DNA of 64,000 nucleotides from Candidatus Poribacteria bacterium. Lineage in GTDB: Bacteria > Poribacteria > WGA-4E > WGA-3G. The DNA is taken from contig OZ240248.1 in NCBI GenBank assembly GCA_965198235.1, positions 2,592,001-2,656,000 on the forward strand, read 5' to 3'. This document shows positions 3-58,811 of the stretch, piece after piece (position 1 is the first letter of the stretch; each line of letters opens with the position of its first letter). The position numbers and the translations under genes are program-made. The notes beneath the pieces are model-generated. The model was not told the origin of the DNA. It worked only from the letters and a program-made list of their open reading frames with translations, and did no database searches.

Positions 3-143
3 ACACGGCTGTCCGAAACCAGTCCGTATATAGCGAGATATAGAAATAGATCGCTACAGGATTCAATGGATAAAGGGCTGAATAGGTGGGCAAATGAGCA
101 GTCTGTCGGTTTCGCTCTGCCGCTCATTCAAATTCGCTTCTAA
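3..143 (+). CDS. 3' end of a gene entering from the window edge (partial, hypothetical)
   Basis: Open frame from base 3 to TAA at 141-143, ending ...GFALPLIQIRF. Confidence 0.4.
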   Translation, partial: TRLSETSPYIARYRNRSLQDSMDKGLNRWANEQSVGFALPLIQIRF

Positions 144-267
144 CTATGGCCTCTTGAACTGCTCTCCATTACATTGCGAGCAGGTTTTTGGTGGGTCCAC
201 AACTACCATAAGATGTAGGGTATAACATCAAAACCGTTAGCACGTGATGTAGCCAAAATACAGAACC

Positions 268-356
268 TGTAGCCTGCAACAACGGCGCAGGCGGATTTGA
301 GAAAGGCACGCTAAAGATAGAACCCACGTCGTTTAACCGCAAGGAATAATTAAAAA
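268..356 (+). repeat. Start-codon-linked structured element, copy 1 (family A)
   Basis: Hairpin GCCTGC-AACAACGGC-GCAGGC at 272, AACCGCAAGG at 335, GTG of fmt 22 nt later. Confidence 0.85.
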
Positions 357-1295
357 GTGCGTATTGTGTTTATGGGGACCAGTGAGTTTGCCGTGCCAGC
401 ACTCAAAGGACTCATCTCCCACAAATTTGAACTCATCGGTGTCGTCACACAACCCGACCGACCGAGCGGACGCGGGAAACGGCTCAGTCCACCACCTGTC
501 AAAGCAGTTGCTACAGAACATGATATACCGGTTTATCAACCTGAGAAGGTGAGAAAGCCGGATTTTGTGCGGACCCTTAAACGTCTCGCACCGAATGTGA
601 TTGTTGTTGCTGCCTTTGGCCAGATTCTGCCCCAGGCTGTTTTGGATATCCCTCCCTGTGGCACTATCAATTTGCATCCCTCTCTTCTTCCAAAGTACCG
701 CGGTGCCGCTCCAATTCAGTGGGCACTAATTAATGGCGAAACCGAGACAGGTGTAACGCTTATGTTACTGGATGCAGGTGAGGATACAGGCGATATTGTC
801 TCTGCAGACCGAGTCCCGATCCGAGATGAGGATACTGCTTTCACATTGACGGAACAGTTGGCACAACTCGGTGCCAACCAACTTGTCCGATGTTTGTCCA
901 ATATGCCGAATGGGGAACCGCCATCGGCAGTTCCACAGAACGACGCAGAAGCAACTCACGCACCGCGGCTGACGAAGGAAATCGGACAAGTTGATTGGAA
1001 TCAACCGGCGACCACAATTCACAATTTAGTCAGAGGTACAGCAATCTGGCCCGGTGCTTATACTTTCTTCCGGGAGAAACTTCGGCTGAAAATTGTCCGT
1101 TGTCAACCACTTCCACAGAAACTCGCTGGACAACCGGGAACCCTTGAAATAGCCGGAAGACAAAAACTGCTCGTTGCCACGGCGGAAGGAACGCTCCAAT
1201 TGTTGGAAATCCAACCCGCAACCAAAAAATCTATGGAAGCACACGATTTTATTAACGGTTATCAATTGCAAACAGGCGAGTTTTTTAATTATTAG
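357..1295 (+). CDS. fmt: Methionyl-tRNA formyltransferase
   Basis: MRIVFMGT start, VVTQPDRP and INLHPSLLPKYRGAAPIQ motifs. Confidence 0.97.
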   Translation: MRIVFMGTSEFAVPALKGLISHKFELIGVVTQPDRPSGRGKRLSPPPVKAVATEHDIPVYQPEKVRKPDFVRTLKRLAPNVIVVAAFGQILPQAVLDIPPCGTINLHPSLLPKYRGAAPIQWALINGETETGVTLMLLDAGEDTGDIVSADRVPIRDEDTAFTLTEQLAQLGANQLVRCLSNMPNGEPPSAVPQNDAEATHAPRLTKEIGQVDWNQPATTIHNLVRGTAIWPGAYTFFREKLRLKIVRCQPLPQKLAGQPGTLEIAGRQKLLVATAEGTLQLLEIQPATKKSMEAHDFINGYQLQTGEFFNY

Positions 1296-1334
1296 ATTTT
1301 CGCGCTGCCCTCCACTCCTACTTGAAATCTGGAC

Positions 1335-1424
1335 GCAAGCCTGCAACAACGGCGCAGGCGACTCTTGAGCAGAACACGTCAAAGTTCAAACTCACATTGT
1401 TTAACCGCAAGGTAAAATTAAAAT
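1335..1424 (+). repeat. Family A element, copy 2
   Basis: AGCCTGCAACAACGGCGCAGGCG identical to copy 1, AACCGCAAGG at 1403, ATG at 1425. Confidence 0.85.
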
Positions 1425-2402
1425 ATGAATAGTCTGAATAATACCCTATTTGCGTCATTCAAGGTTTTCCTCTATCTCTTGATTTTCCTCGGTATAATCG
1501 GAGCGTTAGCCATTTTCGTGGTTATTCCGAGTTGGGTCAGAACTGAGGAGGTGCTTGTTCCCAACATTACCGGCGAAAGTTACTATGAAGCCGTGCGGAT
1601 TCTTGGTGATGCAGGGTTGCAGCCCGCAAAAACCATTCAAGAGGCGAGTAGCGATGCTCCGAAGGGTGAAATCGTCTCACAAAATCCAGAGGCGAACTTT
1701 AGAATAAAATCATATCAACCCGTTGAAATCACAGTTAGCATAGGAGCTGAGTTAGTCCCTGTTCCCTCCGTCATTGGAAAATCGCGAGATGCCGCTTTTG
1801 AATCGCTTGCGACTGCTGGTTTTCGTCCGAATCGAGTTGCCTTCGTCCACTCCGAAGATTATCTACAGGATACTGTCATCGCACAAACACCTCCAGAAGG
1901 GGGTGGTCAACGTCGCAGCAGCCCTGTAAATCTTTTAGTGAGTCGCGGACCTAGACCACAAGTGGTACAACTTCCGAATTTCCAGAGTCAGCTTGCTGCC
2001 GATGTCGTTGCTGTACTGGAAGCAGTGGGACTAAAGGTTGAGACTGAATATAGTTCACACCCCAAAATCCCTCAAGGTGCAATTATCACTCACGAACCTG
2101 TAGGCGGCGTGATGGTGAAAACCGGAGACCGTATCCTACTCGAAATCAGTGGTGTGCAGGGTACGACTGAAAACATCAGTAGACCCTTACCCTTCAAATA
2201 TACGGTTAGTGAAGAAGGAAAACTTTCACGTCGCGTCAAAATTGTTATAATTGATGACTATAGTGAACGCATTGAAGTGGATCAACGCTATGCCCCGGGT
2301 ACAGTGATTGATTTGGAGCAGAAGGGGGTCCGCGTCTTTGGCAAAGCACGAGTGATCGTCTACGAAAATGGTGAAAAATTACCTGAAGTGGTTTATAGAT
2401 AG
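1425..2402 (+). CDS. Membrane-anchored PASTA-domain protein (three repeats)
   Basis: N-terminal TM helix; VPNITG/VPSVIG/LPNFQS repeats with VIAQTP-like motifs; lies between fmt and rpe. Confidence 0.9.
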   Translation: MNSLNNTLFASFKVFLYLLIFLGIIGALAIFVVIPSWVRTEEVLVPNITGESYYEAVRILGDAGLQPAKTIQEASSDAPKGEIVSQNPEANFRIKSYQPVEITVSIGAELVPVPSVIGKSRDAAFESLATAGFRPNRVAFVHSEDYLQDTVIAQTPPEGGGQRRSSPVNLLVSRGPRPQVVQLPNFQSQLAADVVAVLEAVGLKVETEYSSHPKIPQGAIITHEPVGGVMVKTGDRILLEISGVQGTTENISRPLPFKYTVSEEGKLSRRVKIVIIDDYSERIEVDQRYAPGTVIDLEQKGVRVFGKARVIVYENGEKLPEVVYR

Positions 2403-2425
2403 GACTCAACTAAAGGAGATTACAA

Positions 2426-3091
2426 ATTCCTATTCCTAAAATTGCGCCTTCATTGCTCGCTGCCGATTTCAGTCGTCTTGGTAAAGAAGTTAAACGGATC
2501 GTCGCGGCTGGGGCAGACCTACTTCACTTTGATGTGATGGATGGCGAGTTTGTGTCAAATTTCGCTATTAGTCCACCCTTTATCGCTGCTGTTCGCGAGA
2601 TCACCGATGTCCCTTTTGATGTCCACATTATGGTGATGCACCCGCTTCGTTATATCGACGCGCTCGCAGCAGCAGGAGCAGATCTGATTACCTTTCACAT
2701 CGAAAGTGCTGATAAACCGAACGAAGTAATTTCAGCGATCAAAGCACACGGGCTTAAACCGGGTTTAGCACTTTGTCCGAAGACACCTGTCTCGGCGGTT
2801 ACACCTTACCTTTCAGACATTGACTTAGTCCTGCCAATGAGTGTTGAACCTGGATTCGGAGGTCAACCCTTTCAACGAAATACACTCGAAAAAATAGCAA
2901 CATTACATCAAATAGTTCAGGAAATGACAGAGCCTCTTGACATCTCCGTTGATGGTGGTGTAACTACAGAAATCGCGCCCCTCACAATTCATCGAGGTGC
3001 GACGATTCTCGTCGCAGGGACCGCTATCTTCCGCAGTCAGCAACCAGAGATGATTATTCAAAAATTGCGCACCGCTGCCACCTATTTTTAA
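2426..3091 (+). CDS. rpe: Ribulose-phosphate 3-epimerase (probable ATT start)
   Basis: KIAPSLLAADF, HFDVMDG, MSVEPGFGGQ, VDGG motifs; SD AAGGAG at 2413-2418. Confidence 0.93.
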   Translation: MPIPKIAPSLLAADFSRLGKEVKRIVAAGADLLHFDVMDGEFVSNFAISPPFIAAVREITDVPFDVHIMVMHPLRYIDALAAAGADLITFHIESADKPNEVISAIKAHGLKPGLALCPKTPVSAVTPYLSDIDLVLPMSVEPGFGGQPFQRNTLEKIATLHQIVQEMTEPLDISVDGGVTTEIAPLTIHRGATILVAGTAIFRSQQPEMIIQKLRTAATYF

Positions 3092-3180
3092 TTTCGCTTG
3101 CGTTCTTCTGGTTAGAAGATGATCTTTCTGACCGTGTTCGCAGTCAGCGGTGTTGACTGCTGCAAATGTTGGCCAAAGAT

Positions 3181-3274
3181 CGTAAGCCCAAACAACGTTT
3201 GGGCTGGATATACGGAGAGGGACGTGAAATTCCCAATCTACCTCACCGAACCGCAAGGAACATTAGAAAAATAG
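3181..3274 (+). repeat. Family A element, copy 3
   Basis: Hairpin AGCCCAAAC-AAC-GTTTGGGCT, AACCGCAAGG at 3249, ATG at 3275. Confidence 0.8.
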
Positions 3275-4012
3275 ATGCACACTTTCTATGTTTCCCCTTC
3301 TCAGATCTCCAATAATATTGTTACGATTACGGGTTCGGAGCATCATCATCTTCGCAATGTCCTACGGACAAAACCGGGTGAGACTGTCCGAATTATTGAT
3401 GGGAAAGGGAATGCGTATACCGCACAAATTCTTGAAACACACGATGCTTGGCTTTCAAGCGAAGCAAGGATCCTCAGCCATGAATTTCACGCAGTTGTTT
3501 TGCCGAGCCTCACACTCTTTCAAGGACTCCCCAAAAACGATAAGATGGAGTTAATTCTCCAAAAAACGACAGAACTCGGTGTTACACAGATTGTACCACT
3601 GCATTCAGAATACGCCTTGCAGAAACCGAGTCAAAACCGATATGAGCGTTGGCACCGTGTTCTTATCTCTGCTACGAAGCAGTCCGAACGTCTTTATTTG
3701 CCTGAATTATGCAACGCACAAGGGTTTGATGCCTCCTTGGCACAACTCCATAAGTTTTCGCTCTGCCTGCTCCTCAGTCCGCGTCGTGATCAGGAATCGC
3801 ATATTCAGCATATCCAGACGGTTTTGCGAAAGGTGCCGCGTCCGGCTTCTATCGCGCTCTTTGTCGGACCAGAAGGCGGATTTTCCGATCAAGAGGTCAC
3901 CAGTGCTATTGAAAGCGGATGTACACTTGTGACGCTTGGGAGGAACATCCTCCGCACGGAAACTGCCGCAATTGTAGCTGTCGCCGTCGCCGCTTATGAA
4001 TACCAACTGTAA
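3275..4012 (+). CDS. rsmE: 16S rRNA m3U1498 methyltransferase
   Basis: HHLRNVLR, QKTTELGV, VGPEGGFS, LGRNILRTETA motifs. Confidence 0.95.
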   Translation: MHTFYVSPSQISNNIVTITGSEHHHLRNVLRTKPGETVRIIDGKGNAYTAQILETHDAWLSSEARILSHEFHAVVLPSLTLFQGLPKNDKMELILQKTTELGVTQIVPLHSEYALQKPSQNRYERWHRVLISATKQSERLYLPELCNAQGFDASLAQLHKFSLCLLLSPRRDQESHIQHIQTVLRKVPRPASIALFVGPEGGFSDQEVTSAIESGCTLVTLGRNILRTETAAIVAVAVAAYEYQL

Positions 4013-21496: not shown

Positions 21497-23617
21497 ATGG
21501 CATCATGGGGAGAAGCAAGTGAATCTCGCCTCATCGGAAAACGGGTAACCCGTTTGTCCGGTAAGGATAAAGTCACTGGAAAAGCGAAGTATACTTTTGA
21601 TATTAATGAACCGGGGATGCTGTACGGACGCATCTTGCGTTCTGAAACCGCACACGCAACCGTTATGGGCATTGACCTGAGTGAAGCAGAGGCATTACCC
21701 GGGGTCCAGGCAGCTATTCCGCTCATTGAGGTTGGCAATAAACTCCGGTACCAAGGGCAGGAAATTGCTGCTGTTGCCGCTGAAACCGATGACATCGCTA
21801 AGGACGCAATTCGGCTCATTCGTGTCGACTTGGAGGAATTACCCCACGTCGTCACGGAAGCGGACGCGATGGCAGAAGGCGCGCCGCAAATCCGAGAGGA
21901 TTGGGCGGACAATCAGAGCGAACCGAATGTCAGGGAAGATGGCGACATCAATGCAGGATTTGCTGAAGCCGCTGTTGAGGTCGAGGCTACCTATCATACG
22001 CCTGTTCAGACGCACGTTTGCTTGGAAACACATGGACACGTCGCAAAATGGGAAGATGAACAAAATCTTACCGTTTGGGCGTCTACACAAGGTGTTTTTG
22101 GGGTTCGCAACGATTTCGCGCAGCGCTTTGAATTGCCTGCAAACCAGGTCAGGGTCATTACAGAGCACATGGGTGGCGGATTTGGGAGCAAATTCGGACC
22201 CGGCATAGAAGGCCGCACCGCGGTTGAATTGTCACGTATCACTGGCAAAGCAGTGAAGTTAATGCTGACCCGGAAAGCCGAGCATCTTGTTGCTGGCAAT
22301 AGACCCTCAATGACACAGCAGGTCCGCGCTGGCGCGACACGCGACGGGCGACTTATCGCTTACGATATGAAGGGCTATGGCACAGGGGGTATCTCCAGTG
22401 GAGCAGGTTTCACGGGACCTTACGTCTACCACGTACCGAACAGTCGGGCGGAACGGGTTAACGTGGCTACCAACGCCGGCAATCAACGCGCGATGCGCGC
22501 CCCTGGACACCCGCAAGGTGCATTCGCGATGGACTCTCTGATGGATGAACTTGCCGAAAAACTCGGTATGAACCCATTGGAGTTTCGTCGTATCAATGAC
22601 CCGAATGAAGTGCGTCAGGCACAATACACCCTTGGTGCGCAAGAGATAGGCTGGCACCGCCGTAACAGCGTACCAGGCTCCGGCACAGACGTGAAAAAGC
22701 GCGGCATGGGACTTGGCAGCGGACAATGGGGTGGCGGTGGTGGTGGCGGCACAGAAGCGCGCGTTACCATCAATGCAGACGGCACTGTTGAAGCTGTCAC
22801 GGGAACACAGGACATTGGAACCGGTGTCCGCACAGTTATTGCGATGATTGTTGCCGAAGAATTCGGTCTTGAGACTACCGATATCCATGTGAAGGTTGGC
22901 GATAGCGGGCCCGGATTACCCTCTGGCGGCAGTGGGGGTAGTCAAACAACTCCGTCAGTCGCTCCTGTCATCAAAACCGCAGCAGCGGCGGCGAAACAGA
23001 AATTATTTGAACGCATCGCGCCACTGCTTGAGGCACCCATTGGTGATCTCCGTGTCGGCACCGGCACTATCTATGCCGTCTCTGATAGGACAAAGACCAT
23101 TACGTGGAAACAGGCAACCGGGCAACTCGGCATGGAGAGCATTAGCGAAGGCGGAACTTGGGATGAAGACCTCCGTCAAGGGGGTGCCGCAGGTGCCCAG
23201 TTCGCTGAAGTTGAAATTGATACGCAGACCGGAGCTATCAGGGTTATCAAAATTGTCGCCGTTCAGGATTGTGGATTGGCGATTAACAGGTTGACGACGG
23301 AAAGCCAGATTAATGGCGGTGTTATCATGGGGTTGGGTCAGGCACTGCTTGAAGAGCGGTTCATGGACGCGCAGACGGGTCGAATGCTCAACGCCAACCT
23401 TGAGGACTACAAGGTTCCTGGGACTTTCGAGATCCCTGAAATTAAATCCATTGTTTTTGATACGCACCGCAAGGTTACAGGGGTCGGTGAACCGCCGTGT
23501 ATTCCGACGCCTGGGGCTATCGCGAATGCCGTTTACAATGCGATTGGCGTTCGGGTTCGGTCGCTACCGATAACACCTGATAAGATCCTTGACGCACTCG
23601 CCGAAAAGCAGGCATAA
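21497..23617 (+). CDS. Molybdopterin-binding subunit (PaoC-like)
   Basis: SD AGGAGG; KVTGKAKY, MGGGFGSK, AMRAPG, QDIGTG, GVGEP. Confidence 0.93.
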   Translation: MASWGEASESRLIGKRVTRLSGKDKVTGKAKYTFDINEPGMLYGRILRSETAHATVMGIDLSEAEALPGVQAAIPLIEVGNKLRYQGQEIAAVAAETDDIAKDAIRLIRVDLEELPHVVTEADAMAEGAPQIREDWADNQSEPNVREDGDINAGFAEAAVEVEATYHTPVQTHVCLETHGHVAKWEDEQNLTVWASTQGVFGVRNDFAQRFELPANQVRVITEHMGGGFGSKFGPGIEGRTAVELSRITGKAVKLMLTRKAEHLVAGNRPSMTQQVRAGATRDGRLIAYDMKGYGTGGISSGAGFTGPYVYHVPNSRAERVNVATNAGNQRAMRAPGHPQGAFAMDSLMDELAEKLGMNPLEFRRINDPNEVRQAQYTLGAQEIGWHRRNSVPGSGTDVKKRGMGLGSGQWGGGGGGGTEARVTINADGTVEAVTGTQDIGTGVRTVIAMIVAEEFGLETTDIHVKVGDSGPGLPSGGSGGSQTTPSVAPVIKTAAAAAKQKLFERIAPLLEAPIGDLRVGTGTIYAVSDRTKTITWKQATGQLGMESISEGGTWDEDLRQGGAAGAQFAEVEIDTQTGAIRVIKIVAVQDCGLAINRLTTESQINGGVIMGLGQALLEERFMDAQTGRMLNANLEDYKVPGTFEIPEIKSIVFDTHRKVTGVGEPPCIPTPGAIANAVYNAIGVRVRSLPITPDKILDALAEKQA

Positions 23618-23649
23618 GGAAGAAAGATGTTCTTCGCAACATCAAAAAC

Positions 23650-23739
23650 CTAAGCCTGTAATGAAATGGAAGGCGAATCTACGGAAAGGCACTTCATTCA
23701 TTCAACTTACCTAACCGAACCGCAAGGAAAATTAGAAAG
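23650..23739 (+). repeat. Family A element, copy 4, inside the oxidoreductase operon
   Basis: GCCT..AGGC hairpin at 23654, AACCGCAAGG at 23718, ATG at 23740. Confidence 0.8.
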
Positions 23740-24720
23740 ATGGAAAAATTCAGTTACGTTAACGCTACCAGTCTGGAGCAGGTCACGTCACTCCTGAGTG
23801 AAAGCGGTTGGGGCGAAGTCATGCTTATCGCCGGTGGCACGGATCTGCTTGCGGAACTCAAAGAGTACATTGAGACCCCCAAGACGCTGGTTAATCTCAA
23901 GACGTTACCCGGCATGGATAGTATTGAAGCTGATGCATCGGGCTTAAAGATCGGGGCATTAGCCACTGTCGCTGACATCGCTATGCATCCGACTATCCAG
24001 CATCACTATACCGTTCTGGCGCAAGCCGCCGGTTCTGTCGCGACACCACAGATCCGAAACGTCGGGACACTCGGCGGAAATCTCTGCCAGCGTCCGCGGT
24101 GTTGGTACTACCGGGATGAAGCCACCAATTGCCTGAAAAAGGGTGGAGACATCTGTTATGCGGTTGATGGTTTGAGCAAATATCATGCGATCCTCGGTGG
24201 TGATCCTGTCTACATTGTGCATCCTTCAGACCTCGCGCCAGCATTGATTGCCTTGGGTGCCTCGATCAAAATCGTCGGACCTGAGGGCGAGAAAGCTATG
24301 TCGCTTGAGGAATTCTTTACATTACCGGCTGCAGATCCGTACCGTGAGAACGTGTTGGAACCCAATGAAATTGTCGTTGAGGTCAGTGTCCCGGCACCGA
24401 AGCCGAATACGAAGAGTTTCTATTTAAAGGCGCGTGAGAAGGGTGCCCCTGACTTCGCGTTATCAAGCGTTGCTGGCGTTTTTGAGATGGATGGGAAGAC
24501 CTGTAAAACCGCCAGTATCGTTCTCGGCGGTGTCGCGCCCGCGCCTTGGCGTTCTAAAGAGGCAGAAGCGGCAGTCACGGGCAAGATGATCGACGAATCG
24601 GTAAGTCAGCAGGCTGGTGCCGATGCTGTCAAGGACGCACAACCCTTGAACGACAATATGTATAAGGTAACCTTAACACAGAATCTCGTCAGCCGCGCCG
24701 CGATGATGGCTGCAAGCTAA
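23740..24720 (+). CDS. FAD-binding subunit with Fe-S motif (PaoB-like)
   Basis: AGGTDL, QIRNVGTLGGNLCQRPRCWYYR..C....C. Confidence 0.93.
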   Translation: MEKFSYVNATSLEQVTSLLSESGWGEVMLIAGGTDLLAELKEYIETPKTLVNLKTLPGMDSIEADASGLKIGALATVADIAMHPTIQHHYTVLAQAAGSVATPQIRNVGTLGGNLCQRPRCWYYRDEATNCLKKGGDICYAVDGLSKYHAILGGDPVYIVHPSDLAPALIALGASIKIVGPEGEKAMSLEEFFTLPAADPYRENVLEPNEIVVEVSVPAPKPNTKSFYLKAREKGAPDFALSSVAGVFEMDGKTCKTASIVLGGVAPAPWRSKEAEAAVTGKMIDESVSQQAGADAVKDAQPLNDNMYKVTLTQNLVSRAAMMAAS

Positions 24721-49175: not shown

Positions 49176-50654
49176 ATGAGCCAAGAAGAAAAAAAAGAAT
49201 CTGAAGAGACGAAGGATGAGGAGAAAAATCCCGATATACCTGAAGATAAACTCTCGGTTACGCATCACAGCGTTACCATTAATGGCGAAGAGATGCGTTA
49301 CACCGCCACAGCGGGAACACTCGTTCTGAAAGAGGAGATCGACAAGGAGGGCGAGAAGCCGAAAGCCTCCGTTTTCTTTATTGCCTATACGCGTGACGAT
49401 GTGGAAGATACATCCAAACGTCCGATAACGTTCTCCTTCAACGGGGGTCCCGGATCTTCATCAGTGTGGTTACATTTAGGTGTCCTGGGACCGCGGTGTG
49501 TCAAGTCTGATGAAGATGACGAATTGCCGCATCCGCCGTATCAATTGACCAATAACGAATGTTCTATTTTAGACAAAACGGATCTCGTTTTCATCGATCC
49601 CGTCAGCACTGGGTTCAGCAGAGCGGTACCCGGTGAAGAAGCGAAACAATTCCACGGCTTCAAGAGGGATATTGAATCGGTTGGCGATTTTATTCTGCTC
49701 TATTTGGGACGCTACAAACGGTGGGGATCGCCCAAACTCCTCATCGGTGAAAGTTATGGAACAACGCGGGCTGGCGGACTGGCGGGTTATCTTCAGGGAC
49801 GGCACGGTGCCTATCTCAACGCCATCATGCTTGTTTCGGTCGTGCTTAACTTCCAGACAATCCGATTTGCCCCCGGTAACGATCTTCCTTATATTCTCTA
49901 TCTACCTACTTATGCAGCGACTGCACGTTATCATGACAAATTAAGCGAAATTGATGCCCAATTTGAATCGTTCATGGACGAGGTAAGGGCGTTCGCTATG
50001 GGTGATTACACCATCGCTTTGATGCAGGGTGATGCTGTGCCCCCAGATCAACGCGCGAACATCGTTCAACAACTCGCGAAGTATACCGGGCTTACACCGG
50101 AATATATTGAGCGAACGGACATACGGATTAACATTATGCGGTTTTGCAAGGAGTTGCTCCGGGATGAAGGTCGCACGGTTGGGCGTTTTGATAGCCGATA
50201 CAAGGGAATCGACCGCGATTCAGCAGGTGAAACTTACGAATACGATCCGAGTTCCGCAGTCGTGCAAGGCGCGTATACCGCCGCTCTCAACGCTTATGTC
50301 CGAGATGAACTGGAATTTGAGTCCGACCTACCGTATGAGATATTGAGCCGACGTGTTCATCCATGGGACTACAGCGACCATCAGAACGAATACGTCAACG
50401 TTGCCGATACACTCCGCGCGGCGATGACCATGAATCCTGCCTTGAAAGTCTTTGTTGCAAACGGCTATTACGACTTAGCAACACCTTTTCTCGCATCAGA
50501 GTATACCTTCAGCCACCTTGGACTCGATAAATCTTTGCAGGATAACATCACGATGGCTTACTATCAGGCTGGACACATGATGTACATAGACCAGGCGGAA
50601 TTGCGTAAGATGAAAGACGATTTGGATGCGTTCCTTGACGACGTACTTTCGTAA
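49176..50654 (+). CDS. Serine carboxypeptidase (S10)
   Basis: FNGGPGSSS, DPVSTGFS, GESYG, GYYDLATP, AGHMMY. Confidence 0.93.
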   Translation: MSQEEKKESEETKDEEKNPDIPEDKLSVTHHSVTINGEEMRYTATAGTLVLKEEIDKEGEKPKASVFFIAYTRDDVEDTSKRPITFSFNGGPGSSSVWLHLGVLGPRCVKSDEDDELPHPPYQLTNNECSILDKTDLVFIDPVSTGFSRAVPGEEAKQFHGFKRDIESVGDFILLYLGRYKRWGSPKLLIGESYGTTRAGGLAGYLQGRHGAYLNAIMLVSVVLNFQTIRFAPGNDLPYILYLPTYAATARYHDKLSEIDAQFESFMDEVRAFAMGDYTIALMQGDAVPPDQRANIVQQLAKYTGLTPEYIERTDIRINIMRFCKELLRDEGRTVGRFDSRYKGIDRDSAGETYEYDPSSAVVQGAYTAALNAYVRDELEFESDLPYEILSRRVHPWDYSDHQNEYVNVADTLRAAMTMNPALKVFVANGYYDLATPFLASEYTFSHLGLDKSLQDNITMAYYQAGHMMYIDQAELRKMKDDLDAFLDDVLS

Positions 50655-50661
50655 CCCCTAC

Positions 50662-50914
50662 GCCTTAACCGCGAGGTAAATTAAGGGATCAGACGAAATT
50701 AGTCCTAAGTGCGTAGCTTGAAACGAAGTGGAAAGCGGGTTTGTGGGAAGGAACGTCAAATCCACAACCGCTGTGCCTTAACCGCAAGGTAAATTAGAGA
50801 ATCAGATGAAATTAGCCGTAAGTGCGTAGCTTGAAACGAAGTGGAAAGCGGGTCTACGGGAAGGAACATCAAATCCCCAGTTCGCCTGACCGAACCGCAA
50901 GGTAAATTAAAAAA
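50662..50914 (+). repeat. Tandem array of family A element, 113-bp period
   Basis: AACCGC(A/G)AGG at 50667, 50780, 50893; TAAGTGCGTAGCTTGAAACGAAGTGGAAAGCGGGT twice. Confidence 0.88.
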
Positions 50915-51958
50915 ATGAGTTATCAGAGAGAATTTGAGAAAAGGCTGAACGTTGCTGTCGTCGGTGTCGGTTCACACGGTTATCGCAACGTTCTGCCGAC
51001 GCTAACCTTTCTCCCGATTCGGCTCAAAGCGTTCTGTGACCTTGATATTGACCGTGCCCGCGTCACTGCCGAACAATACGGTGTTCAGGCGTGCTATCCG
51101 AGTATGGCGGAGATGCTCCGCAACGAAGAATTGGACGCGATCTTTCTCTGCGCACCGCCGCGTCTACACCCTGAATTAACCTGTGAAGCGTTAGACGCCG
51201 GTATGCATGTCTGGATGGAAAAGCCGCCCGGAATGTTTGCTGACGAGGTCTCAGAGATGATCCGTCACCGAAAGGATCGCGTCGTGGTTGTCGGGTTCAA
51301 AAAGGCTTTCATGCCTGCCACGCAGAAGATTATCGAAATCTTCGCAACCGATGAATACGGTCCCTTACGGAGCATTTTGGGGGTCTATCCGATGACGATT
51401 TCAGAGGATGGGAAGCGTGTGCTACGCGAGAAACAGCATACGAATTGGCTCCAAAACGGGTGTCATCCACTGTCTCTGTTTGTCGCAGTCGGCGGGAAGG
51501 TTTCAGCGGTGACCGTTCGCCGGGGGCAACGGGGTGGTGGCGCGTGTATCTTGGAGTACGAAAGTGGAGCACTCGGAAACTTTCATTTAGCGGATGGCGC
51601 GAGGCATGGACAGCCTTCTGAACTTTATCAATTCTTCGGTGATGGATGCCACGCCGAAATTCGGAACAGCACGCGAGTTGTACTCCAGCGTGGCATATCC
51701 TTCAATTATAGCGGCAGCACCAGTTATGTCCCTGAAGGTTTTGACAGTGGGGCTATCGTCTGGGAGCCACAAAACAGCCTCGGCACCCTCGAAAACAAAG
51801 GGCTTTTCATACAAGGCTTCTACCAAGAGATGCGATATTTCTGTGACTGTATTCTGGAGGGCAAACCCGCAGCGCAAGGGTCGCTTGAATTTGCACTGGA
51901 AGTGATGAAGGTTTATGAGGCGGGACTCCGTTCAGAAGGCGAAACCGTTCCTGTTTGA
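50915..51958 (+). CDS. Gfo/Idh/MocA oxidoreductase
   Basis: [15 protein letters not shown]. Confidence 0.9.
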
Positions 51959-58785: not shown

Positions 58786-58811
58786 AGGGGGTTTTTGCTT
58801 GGGTGTTTTCC
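58786..58811 (+). repeat. Short repeat family E
   Basis: GGGGTTTTTGCTTGGGTGTTT, also near 63382 and inverted near 42121 and 43636. Confidence 0.65.

Follow-up and report, generated by a model that had tools for sequence, protein, structure and literature searches.

Family A, a repeat that abuts start codons in Candidatus Poribacteria: a candidate structured leader cassette of insertion origin

This analysis concerns family A, an interspersed repeat that lies directly upstream of start codons in a 64-kb stretch of DNA from a Candidatus Poribacteria bacterium (G000:C1:2592001-2656000; hereafter the window, with G000 denoting the source genome, which spans 5.17 Mb and is 96.3% complete). Six full copies of family A, each aligning over ~95 nt, and one degenerate copy are found in the window. 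In our assessment there is about an even chance that family A represents an old, genus-wide, structured cassette derived by insertion, which forms the 5' leader of the gene that follows or, most often, an intercistronic spacer. The sequence-only reading of this stretch had left the choice between an RNA leader and a small mobile element, and both halves find support: the functional leader in strong purifying selection on an orthologous copy, and the mobile element in empty sites among relatives, an edge that falls at the native ATG, and a GGAGG spacer that has been replaced by the A-rich tail of the element.

From 5' to 3', family A comprises an A-rich lead-in, an AG (often GTAG) head, a hairpin (P1), a helix (P2a), the motif CCGCAAGG and a tail. 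In P1, a 4-8-bp stem of free sequence surrounds an internal loop, purine-rich and conserved, and a tip made of 2 bp and a triloop. P2a is a long-range helix that pairs the bases following P1 with those preceding CCGCAAGG and closes a variable region. The motif itself is invariant and is followed by an A/T-rich tail of 12 nt that reaches precisely to the start codon. Sequence conservation extends from ~76 nt before CCGCAAGG to position +19, and past the start codon it drops to background level.

Pairing of the helices was counted on a hand-drawn structure over 59 diverse copies (alignment A2). P1 is 96.6% paired with all four pairs varying on both sides, and its inner 2-bp/triloop tip is 89% paired (C-G in 41 copies, U-A in 13). 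P2a is 83% paired, taking the forms CGG/CCG and AAG/UUU together with an AGGAACC/GGUUCCU variant, and one of its pairs is G-U in 18 copies. The covariation score lies at 0.41-0.49, compared with 0.07-0.16 when the partners are slid and 0.22-0.25 when they are shuffled, and none of 500 shuffles reaches it. By these counts both P1 and P2a covary, as the sequence-only reading required of its structured element. Because the copies are paralogues with subfamilies among them, the independent covariation events are fewer than the cells counted. The CC-GCAA-GG hairpin is invariant and hence uninformative in this respect, and RNAalifold retains only P1 and the invariant CC/GG. Two alternative inner helices, 44-47/71-75 and 45-47/67-69, were rejected at 50-70% pairing.

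The exact 10-mer AACCGCAAGG occurs in the window at 335, 1403, 3249, 23718, 50780 and 50893, always on the + strand. When up to one mismatch is allowed, the window holds 15 matches against 3.86 +/- 1.83 in shuffled sequence, where 0/100 shuffles reach 15. Alignment of 12 candidates identified the six exact matches as full copies and the match at 50667 as a degenerate seventh; five further one-mismatch matches in the same alignment have the motif alone in common with family A. The hairpins of the full copies start at 272, 1339, 3186, 23654, 50716 and 50829, which is 63-64 nt 5' of the motif, and their stems vary in sequence while keeping their pairing. Open reading frames (ORFs) begin 22 nt from the start of AACCGCAAGG at 357 (GTG), 1425, 23740 and 50915, and 26 nt from it at 3275 (rsmE). 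The six positions, the near-constant spacing, the changing yet paired stems and the two start-codon distances had all been proposed from the letters of the window, and they were confirmed by our own reading of positions 200-1500, the motif search, the alignment and the ORF positions. A covariance model (R1) built from the 59 other genomic copies of alignment A2 scores the six window copies at 74.9-95.1 bits. Matches to a regular expression for the P1 loop on the minus strand of the window (8759, 36302 and 43599) are chance only.

Copy 1 (266..356, +; R1 81.8 bits) lies directly 5' of the GTG of fmt at 357 and illustrates the layout, with P1 at 272-277/287-292, P2a at 297-301 (TTGAG)/332-336 (TTTAA), CCGCAAGG at 337-344 and the A-rich tail at 345-356. 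Copy 2 (1333..1424, +; 74.9 bits) is directly 5' of the ATG at 1425 of a PASTA-domain gene (ORF 1425..2402, Pfam PASTA). Copy 3 (3179..3270, +; 87.1 bits) precedes the rsmE ATG at 3275, four nt beyond the usual spacing (rsmE ORF 3275..4012, +, Pfam Methyltrans_RNA/PUA_4). Copy 4 (23648..23739, +; 91.6 bits) sits within an operon, between the two subunit genes of one enzyme: the stop codon of a molybdopterin-binding large subunit lies at 23615-23617 and the ATG of the FAD-binding subunit at 23740 (both from Pfam), and a 9-nt direct repeat, AGAAAGATG, flanks the copy at 23621-23629 and 23734-23742. The last two copies belong to a tandem array. Copy 6 (50823..50914, +; 95.1 bits) is the last array unit and adjoins the ATG at 50915 of a GFO/IDH/MocA oxidoreductase (Pfam), whereas copy 5 (50710..50801, +; 77.9 bits), with the motif at 50780, is internal to this 113-nt array and for that reason lacks a gene of its own. 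The genes downstream of the window copies, namely fmt, the PASTA-domain gene, rsmE, the molybdopterin dehydrogenase FAD subunit and the oxidoreductase, are unrelated to one another. The fmt ORF (357..1295, +, Pfam Formyl_trans_N/C) encodes a protein 81% identical to sequences from Candidatus Poribacteria metagenome-assembled genomes (MAGs).

The association with start codons extends to the whole genome. The exact 10-mer occurs 206 times in the 5.17 Mb, and an iterated nhmmer profile finds 249 copies of family A, 142 on the + and 107 on the - strand, dispersed over the whole chromosome at 3 to 44 per 0.5-Mb bin; in G000 the orientation of the copies shows no pattern with chromosome position or GC skew. 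Position classes were computed on 246 copies, with an ORF of at least 70 aa counted as long. In 122 of the 246, the start codon of such an ORF lies 17-24 nt after CCGCAAGG, at exactly 20 nt in 88 cases and as an ATG in 106; the same class takes in 134 of 2000 random positions (6.7%) and 7/246 positions in antisense. A further 44 copies have a start codon 25-70 nt on, several of them with an AGGAG of their own, and 15 have one 71-200 nt on. The remainder are internal to a tandem array (20), face the 3' end of a convergent gene (35) or fit no class (10). Genome-wide, then, the copies are for the most part neither randomly oriented nor far from start codons. The sense orientation ahead of genes that had been proposed for every copy stands for those in the window, and fails for the 14% of genomic copies that face convergent gene 3' ends. 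The start-abutting copies lie behind a co-directional ORF in 89 cases and behind a divergent one in 15, with neither present within 245 nt in the other 18. R1 also finds matches in 18/18 genomes of the same genus that were searched, at 10 to at least 139 per genome, and in 1/12 genomes from three other families of the order.

Comparison of orthologous loci in congeners supports an origin of the copies by insertion. We examined five sites, namely fmt (site 1), the interval between fmt and the PASTA gene (site 2), rpe-rsmE (site 3), the dehydrogenase subunits (site 4) and the peptidase-oxidoreductase interval (site 5); loci in relatives carry L numbers. Filled, empty, tail-only and tandem states were all found, presence/absence polymorphism was seen at 5/5 sites, and the empty sites that the sequence-only reading had suggested looking for occur at every one of them. 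At every filled site the native spacer has been lost, and the new sequence runs precisely up to the native ATG.

At site 4, 18 of 29 relatives' loci are empty and read TAAGGAGGTAAGCAATG (stop codon, GGAGG, 6-nt spacer, ATG), and the element stands in place of this native GGAGG spacer in the 11 filled loci. In G000 the 9-nt direct repeat around the element includes the ATG. Across the 29 congeners (L188-L216), the filled allele is found in G000, G018 and about ten distant genomes with 78-82% flank identity, and not in closer ones with 87-92%. This patchy distribution points to an old polymorphism, to exchange of alleles or to one source copy having inserted repeatedly.

The other four sites show the same range of states. 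Site 1 carries no element in 10 of 16 resolved relatives. The fmt start codon behind the element is GTG in G000, G018, G052 and G041 and ATG in G004, G012 and G050; in all relatives without the element it is ATG. At site 2, 8 of 17 relatives have a short ancestral spacer that lacks an A-rich tail, three have the tail only, four have a full copy (three of these with a second 20-nt tail module), one has a 23-nt 3' module, and one has an inverted fragment with a tail module. Site 3 is empty in eight of 15 resolved relatives, holds a single copy in five, and holds tandem copies, in a unit that includes the end of rpe, in two. At site 5 the tail adjoins the ATG in 26 of 28 resolved loci, and the other two are empty with a GGAG spacer. 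A 33-nt 3' module makes up the entire spacer in four of these loci (L236, L237, L240 and L247), and the other filled loci hold one to three copies together with other repeats. In L222 and L225 the first bases of the gene appear a second time, as a clean 13-nt duplicate before the last copy. The interval at site 5 is also a hotspot for unrelated inserts: L220 (G014) carries five tandem copies of a ~75-nt unit unrelated to family A between the peptidase gene and the array, and further unrelated inserts are present in L222, L223, L230, L238 and L242.

Selection was quantified at one locus by comparing window copy 4 with eight distant orthologues at site 4. The element body is 92.4% identical, and the motif and tail 99.4%, at a locus where the flanking coding sequence is 82% identical and third codon positions 55-56%. 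The 32-nt 5' flank, which is unique in G000, is 91% identical. This orthologous copy is under strong purifying selection. The body of copy 4 is locus-specific, its nearest paralogue being 88% identical, and homogenisation by other copies therefore does not account for the conservation.

How such a cassette might work can be proposed from its layout. We suggest that the element would be transcribed together with its gene, and that its structure would act in the RNA. The AAGG of CCGCAAGG would pair with 16S rRNA at its canonical anti-Shine-Dalgarno end and, with the unstructured A-rich tail at fixed spacing, would constitute the translation initiation region. The upstream hairpins would fold on themselves and leave this region single-stranded, and might also serve as a protein-binding or mRNA-stabilising 5' module. 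The 3' end of the G000 16S rRNA is canonical, so the AAGG can pair with it, and the tail and AUG are unpaired in 8/10 minimum-energy folds. That the GGAGG spacer was replaced within the operon of an enzyme needing both subunits leads us to infer that the tail works as an initiation region. Contigs from the RNA-library runs X1-X4 join the element to fmt (X1 record 3, 275-1245) and to the flanks of other loci on both sides; contigs give no starts, strand or level, the summed depth over the element reflects collapsed repeats, and uncovered stretches are without meaning. They fit transcription through the element weakly, DNA in the libraries being possible.

Several observations weigh against a cassette of this kind. 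The 12 nt between AAGG and AUG fall at the upper end of the range for Shine-Dalgarno spacing, and 37% of copies have GGT or GGG instead of GGA. The contigs give no 5' ends, and transcription through the element is presumed. The inner variable region is 50-70% paired with no consensus pairing, and fold energies are no better than those of shuffled sequences (z -1.57 to +1.55). Where exactly one stem pair of P1 departs from Watson-Crick pairing, it is G-T in 15 hairpins and A-C in 17, and given these equal counts P1 could equally act as a hairpin at the DNA level. Of the 246 copies, 35 aim at gene 3' ends and ten are unclassed. No mobilising enzyme was found in G000 in tests for RAYT/IS200 (REP-associated tyrosine transposase, where REP stands for repetitive extragenic palindromic sequence) and for reverse transcriptase. 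Nor does G000 contain near-identical dispersed copies, the closest pair differing by 7 mismatches/90 nt and a typical nearest neighbour by 14-20, which indicates that the family is old and maintained and not in a current burst.

The main rival, which we regard as unlikely, is that family A is a promoter cassette for leaderless or short-leader mRNAs, resembling the REP2/CREN elements of Neisseria. Here the tail would hold a -10-like hexamer of the form nAnAnT (TAAAAT, TATAAT) whose final T precedes the A of the ATG by 7 nt, transcripts would begin on the start codon, and the upstream structure would act at the DNA level or bind a regulator. The composition of the tail agrees with this: counted from the start of CCGCAAGG, 97-99% of copies have A at +9, A at +11 and T at +13, and the occurrence of ATG peaks at +20. 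A sigma-70 consensus scan accepts one window copy (CTCACA, 16-nt spacer, TAAAAT; 1391-1418), and the 44 copies whose start codon is 25-70 nt away, several of which have an AGGAG of their own, are what leadered transcripts from such a promoter would give. However, there is no -35-like hexamer at the right distance (the sequence there is of CCCACC type) and no TG extension, and the scan, run over 3.5 kb, gave 6 sites against 4.1 expected and flagged one of the three copies there. The RNA-library contigs also pass through the element body into the gene and upstream flanks, which counts weakly against this rival. Moreover, 73% of abutting copies lie behind a co-directional gene, one of them in a two-subunit operon, where read-through would suffice. 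A promoter would also leave the covariation of P1 and P2a unexplained.

Returning to the inserted cassette, the question is how its copies come to lie so exactly at start codons. We could also envisage, with comparably low expectation, that the junction of tail and start codon is the target of a novel recombination activity, and that the cassette is subsequently kept by selection as a shared leader. Recognition of the junction between A-rich tail and ATG would explain both the stacking of copies at existing tails and the duplications that start at the ATG. The variable length of these duplications, together with the tail stacking, suggests that copies arise at the junction through template switching or recombination; some cases can be accounted for by unequal crossing-over between alleles.

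A rather more doubtful proposal is that family A is the shared leader of a global post-transcriptional regulon, in which an RNA-binding protein reads the P1 loop and perhaps CCGCAAGG and several hundred genes are co-regulated. This overlaps with the cassette explanation that we prefer and does not exclude it. Conservation of the P1 loop sequence while its stems covary fits a protein reader, as does the purifying selection at site 4, and the same loop, with freely varying and compensated stems, heads a sister family of ~199 copies. Against this stand the downstream genes, which have no common function, and the sister family itself, in which just 51 of 199 copies abut a start codon. In the 96.3%-complete genome, CsrA, considered as a reader of GGA motifs, was not found (PF02599), and Hfq gave a single match below the cut-off at 22.7 bits. 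A riboswitch or gene-specific leader was rejected, the downstream genes in the window belonging to no single functional class.

It seems equally improbable to us that family A is selfish DNA of the REP type or the MITE type (miniature transposable elements with inverted repeats) with no host function, its hairpins being recognised by an enzyme of single-strand or site-specific recombination. The position of copies next to start and stop codons would then reflect a target preference for A-rich gene borders and tolerance of insertions there. Much of the evidence for mobility can be read this way, including the polymorphism at all five sites, the stacking of copies in tandem, the tail-only remnants, the inverted copies that meet stop codons with their tail end, and the spread in congeners from 10 model matches to at least 139. 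Direct duplications that begin on the ATG or immediately 5' of it (site 4, 9 nt; L222/L225, 13 nt; C1:1204350, ~20 nt) and the absence of a G-T versus A-C asymmetry in P1 point in the same direction. Selfish DNA does not, however, account for 91-99% conservation of an orthologous copy and its unique flank at a locus with 55% identity at third codon positions, and the mutual divergence of the copies (nearest neighbours typically at 14-20 mismatches/90 nt) is unlike that of active MITEs. The genome-wide signal of flanking duplications, with a shared string of at least 9 nt across the element in 27 of 246 copies against 6.25 expected, is dominated by tandem arrays. Terminal inverted repeats are likewise absent: over 230 copies, the 5' 25 nt and the reverse complement of the 3' 25 nt agree at 8.36 positions, compared with 8.46 after shuffling.

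G000 has six PF01797 (Y1 transposase) genes, three IS200/IS605-like and three RAYT-like, the latter at C1:606918-607262, 1898775-1899119 and 3853757-3854101 (with flanks L154-L156). The RAYT-like genes are flanked on both sides by a different, unrelated REP, consisting of a GCACTCC.GC.GAGTGC hairpin followed by TATGTCTATAG and present in ~35 genome copies. No P1 hairpins flank them, two incidental P1-like matches lying ~1.3 kb from one, and a RAYT/IS200 link was rejected. Classical REPs carry a GTAG-like head, and in family A an AG (often GTAG) stands before the P1 stem at 1.9-2.0 bits; the stem itself is just 4-8 bp long, encloses a large conserved loop and forms one module of a longer unit. 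Retroposition of the kind known from short interspersed elements, by target-primed reverse transcription, was rejected because G000 contains no PF00078 match, and among 41 congeneric genomes the presence of reverse transcriptase (24/41) does not track copy number as judged by a proxy, the high-copy genomes G006, G014, G018, G036 and G050 being without it. A MITE with a fixed target-site duplication does not fit the varying lengths of 9, 13 and ~20 nt, no longer element that shares its ends was found, and no parent element was found in G000. An integron attC or cassette array was rejected because the copies are chromosome-wide and not clustered.

Family A shares its modules with other repeats in the genome. 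The ~199 copies of the sister family are shorter and consist of a ACCAGAAACC-type lead-in, the same P1 loop in a 6-7-bp covarying stem, CCCAGGAG and an A-rich tail. Many are inverted at gene 3' ends, and degenerate examples of this kind lie in the window at 137..195 and 1281..1325. Window copies 1-3 each have an inverted degenerate copy upstream whose tail provides or meets the stop codon of the preceding gene. The first (137..195, -; R1 14.5 bits, E 0.19) has its hairpin at 161-181, and its tail end meets the stop codon of the upstream gene at 141-143. In the second (1281..1325, -), the reverse complement of the A-rich tail, TTTTTTAATTATTAG at 1281-1295, provides the last codons and the stop codon of fmt; in more distant relatives the end of fmt differs, the spacer is ~10-13 nt, and the inverted hairpin is clearer in locus L161. 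The third (3084..3166, -; R1 18.3 bits, E 0.015) provides the stop codon of ribulose-phosphate 3-epimerase (3089-3091) through its reverse-complemented tail. The tandem array at site 5 likewise begins with a degenerate unit (50602..50688, +; R1 13.9 bits, E 0.28), of which only the 3' module can be recognised (~50655-50687, with AACCGCGAGG at 50667), just 3' of the peptidase S10 stop codon at 50652-50654; it is the 33-nt module that fills the spacer in L236, L237, L240 and L247.

Other rearrangements of the modules were seen elsewhere. About a dozen tail-only modules are present in G000. In a rarer variant the CGCAAGG core is inverted (CGCCTTGCG) and the A-rich tail and ATG still follow (G000 C1 ~2688488(+), 3104888(-) and 1699192(-)). 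P1 may carry inserts, including GTTTTTGCTTGGG-type repeats, an extended hairpin and other small elements. The GTTTTTGCTTGGG-type short repeats number 254 in G000, often several in a row, and occur in the 3' side of P1 or alone, with window examples at 58791(+), 63385(+), 43652(-) and 42139(-); at site 4 a 22-nt block of this type is present in the distant orthologues and precisely missing from G000 and G018. One family-A copy is split in its variable region by a 342-nt insert (G000 C1:2377119-2377460), which looks like a nested deletion derivative of an insertion sequence, parts of it matching the two ends of a region near C1:4647856-4649048.

Searches for a described counterpart gave no direct match. 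Rfam 15 returned no match at gathering score and none at E<=1 over the 64 kb, and two unrelated weak matches at E<=10 in 200-3400. The match to a described Rfam family that would have refuted the sequence-only reading was not found, and the RAYT-like genes of G000 carry a different REP. Literature searches, including a term search of PMC8546597, found no paper on such repeats in Poribacteria. Reportedly, Weinberg et al. 2017 described 224 candidate RNAs, among them a 'Poribacteria-1' motif, and the supplements of that study may bear on the novelty of family A. The main text of PMC5737381 does not mention Poribacteria.

By description, the closest kind of element appears to be the Neisseria REP2 (CREN, contact regulatory element) and Borrelia IR repeats. 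In the passages of PMC3184786 (Delihas 2011) that deal with it, REP2 is presented as a ~100-150-bp intergenic element with two 5' stem-loops and no terminal inverted repeats, which lies in sense immediately upstream of unrelated genes and carries a ribosome-binding site and ATG; its ~26 copies hold a promoter and an ATG and ORF of their own. Family A similarly has 5' stem-loops, no inverted ends, a gene-adjacent position and a putative ribosome-binding region. It differs in having ~250 copies, with ~200 more in the sister family, in using the gene's native ATG, in lying in many cases between cistrons and also inverted at stop codons, and in a promoter that is only predicted from the -10-like hexamer; the likeness is one of description. 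The Borrelia plasmid IR elements, as covered in the same passages of PMC3184786, share two 5' stem-loops, the lack of inverted ends, and a position upstream of genes with promoter, ribosome-binding site and ATG. They are plasmid-borne and low-copy, those passages describe no fixed-spacing A-rich tail or genus-wide spread, and they too are likened by description.

Mycobacterial interspersed repetitive units (MIRUs) resemble family A in other respects. According to the section on them in PMC3184786, they are 40-100 bp long, lie in operons on polycistronic mRNA, are oriented with the gene, form tandem arrays, show empty and filled sites, and overlap with their ends the stop and start regions of flanking genes. 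Among family-A copies, only the inverted ones were seen to overlap a neighbouring gene in this way, the reverse complement of their tail giving stop codons. MIRUs differ, in the same section, by their small translation-coupling ORFs, tetranucleotide direct repeats and imperfect inverted ends, whereas family A has no inverted ends and carries a conserved hairpin, a helix and a candidate initiation-region tail. The TAACTGA heptamer repeats of Beggiatoaceae and cyanobacteria, as far as the relevant parts of PMC4679880 describe them, also lie a few nt 5' of unrelated starts and displace a canonical ribosome-binding site, but they consist of plain 7-nt units in tandem, lacking hairpins and a fixed cassette architecture. 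TAACTGA/CTGATAA heptamers themselves form 15 arrays in G000, and in relatives without the element (L063, L160, L166, L170 and L172) such arrays are found immediately upstream of the fmt start codon. REP/REPIN sequences and MITEs (Correia, ERIC, BOX, RUP) are likewise abundant, short, hairpin-forming intergenic repeats, with a modular build in the case of BOX; family A stands apart from them in its strong sense bias, its exact start-codon abutment and its lack of terminal inverted repeats.

Family A would accordingly be placed as an intergenic repeat bearing expression signals, which is a known kind, with a placement mechanism that is possibly new. What is distinctive is a ten-fold higher copy number, exact abutment to native starts, covarying modules shared with a sister family, inverted copies at stop codons, and measured conservation.

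Bacterial interspersed repeats are usually viewed as selfish or structural DNA. Here, in more than 100 genes per genome, a repeat would form the initiation region; within an operon it has taken the place of a canonical Shine-Dalgarno spacer, and between species of a genus of uncultured sponge symbionts it is conserved far above the neutral level. The exact abutment to the start codon raises the mechanistic question of how copies are placed. If the family instead carries promoters, leaderless expression would be widespread in this phylum. If a system that recognises the junction of tail and start codon proved true, about a tenth of genes, counting family A and its sister family, would be initiated by one portable module in replacement of the Shine-Dalgarno sequence, and these genes would perhaps be co-regulated through a P1-binding protein. 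If the tail does drive initiation, family A would be a natural, portable ribosome-landing cassette with insulating structure, which would bear on translation in little-known phyla, on the annotation of gene starts in Poribacteria MAGs and on parts for synthetic biology.

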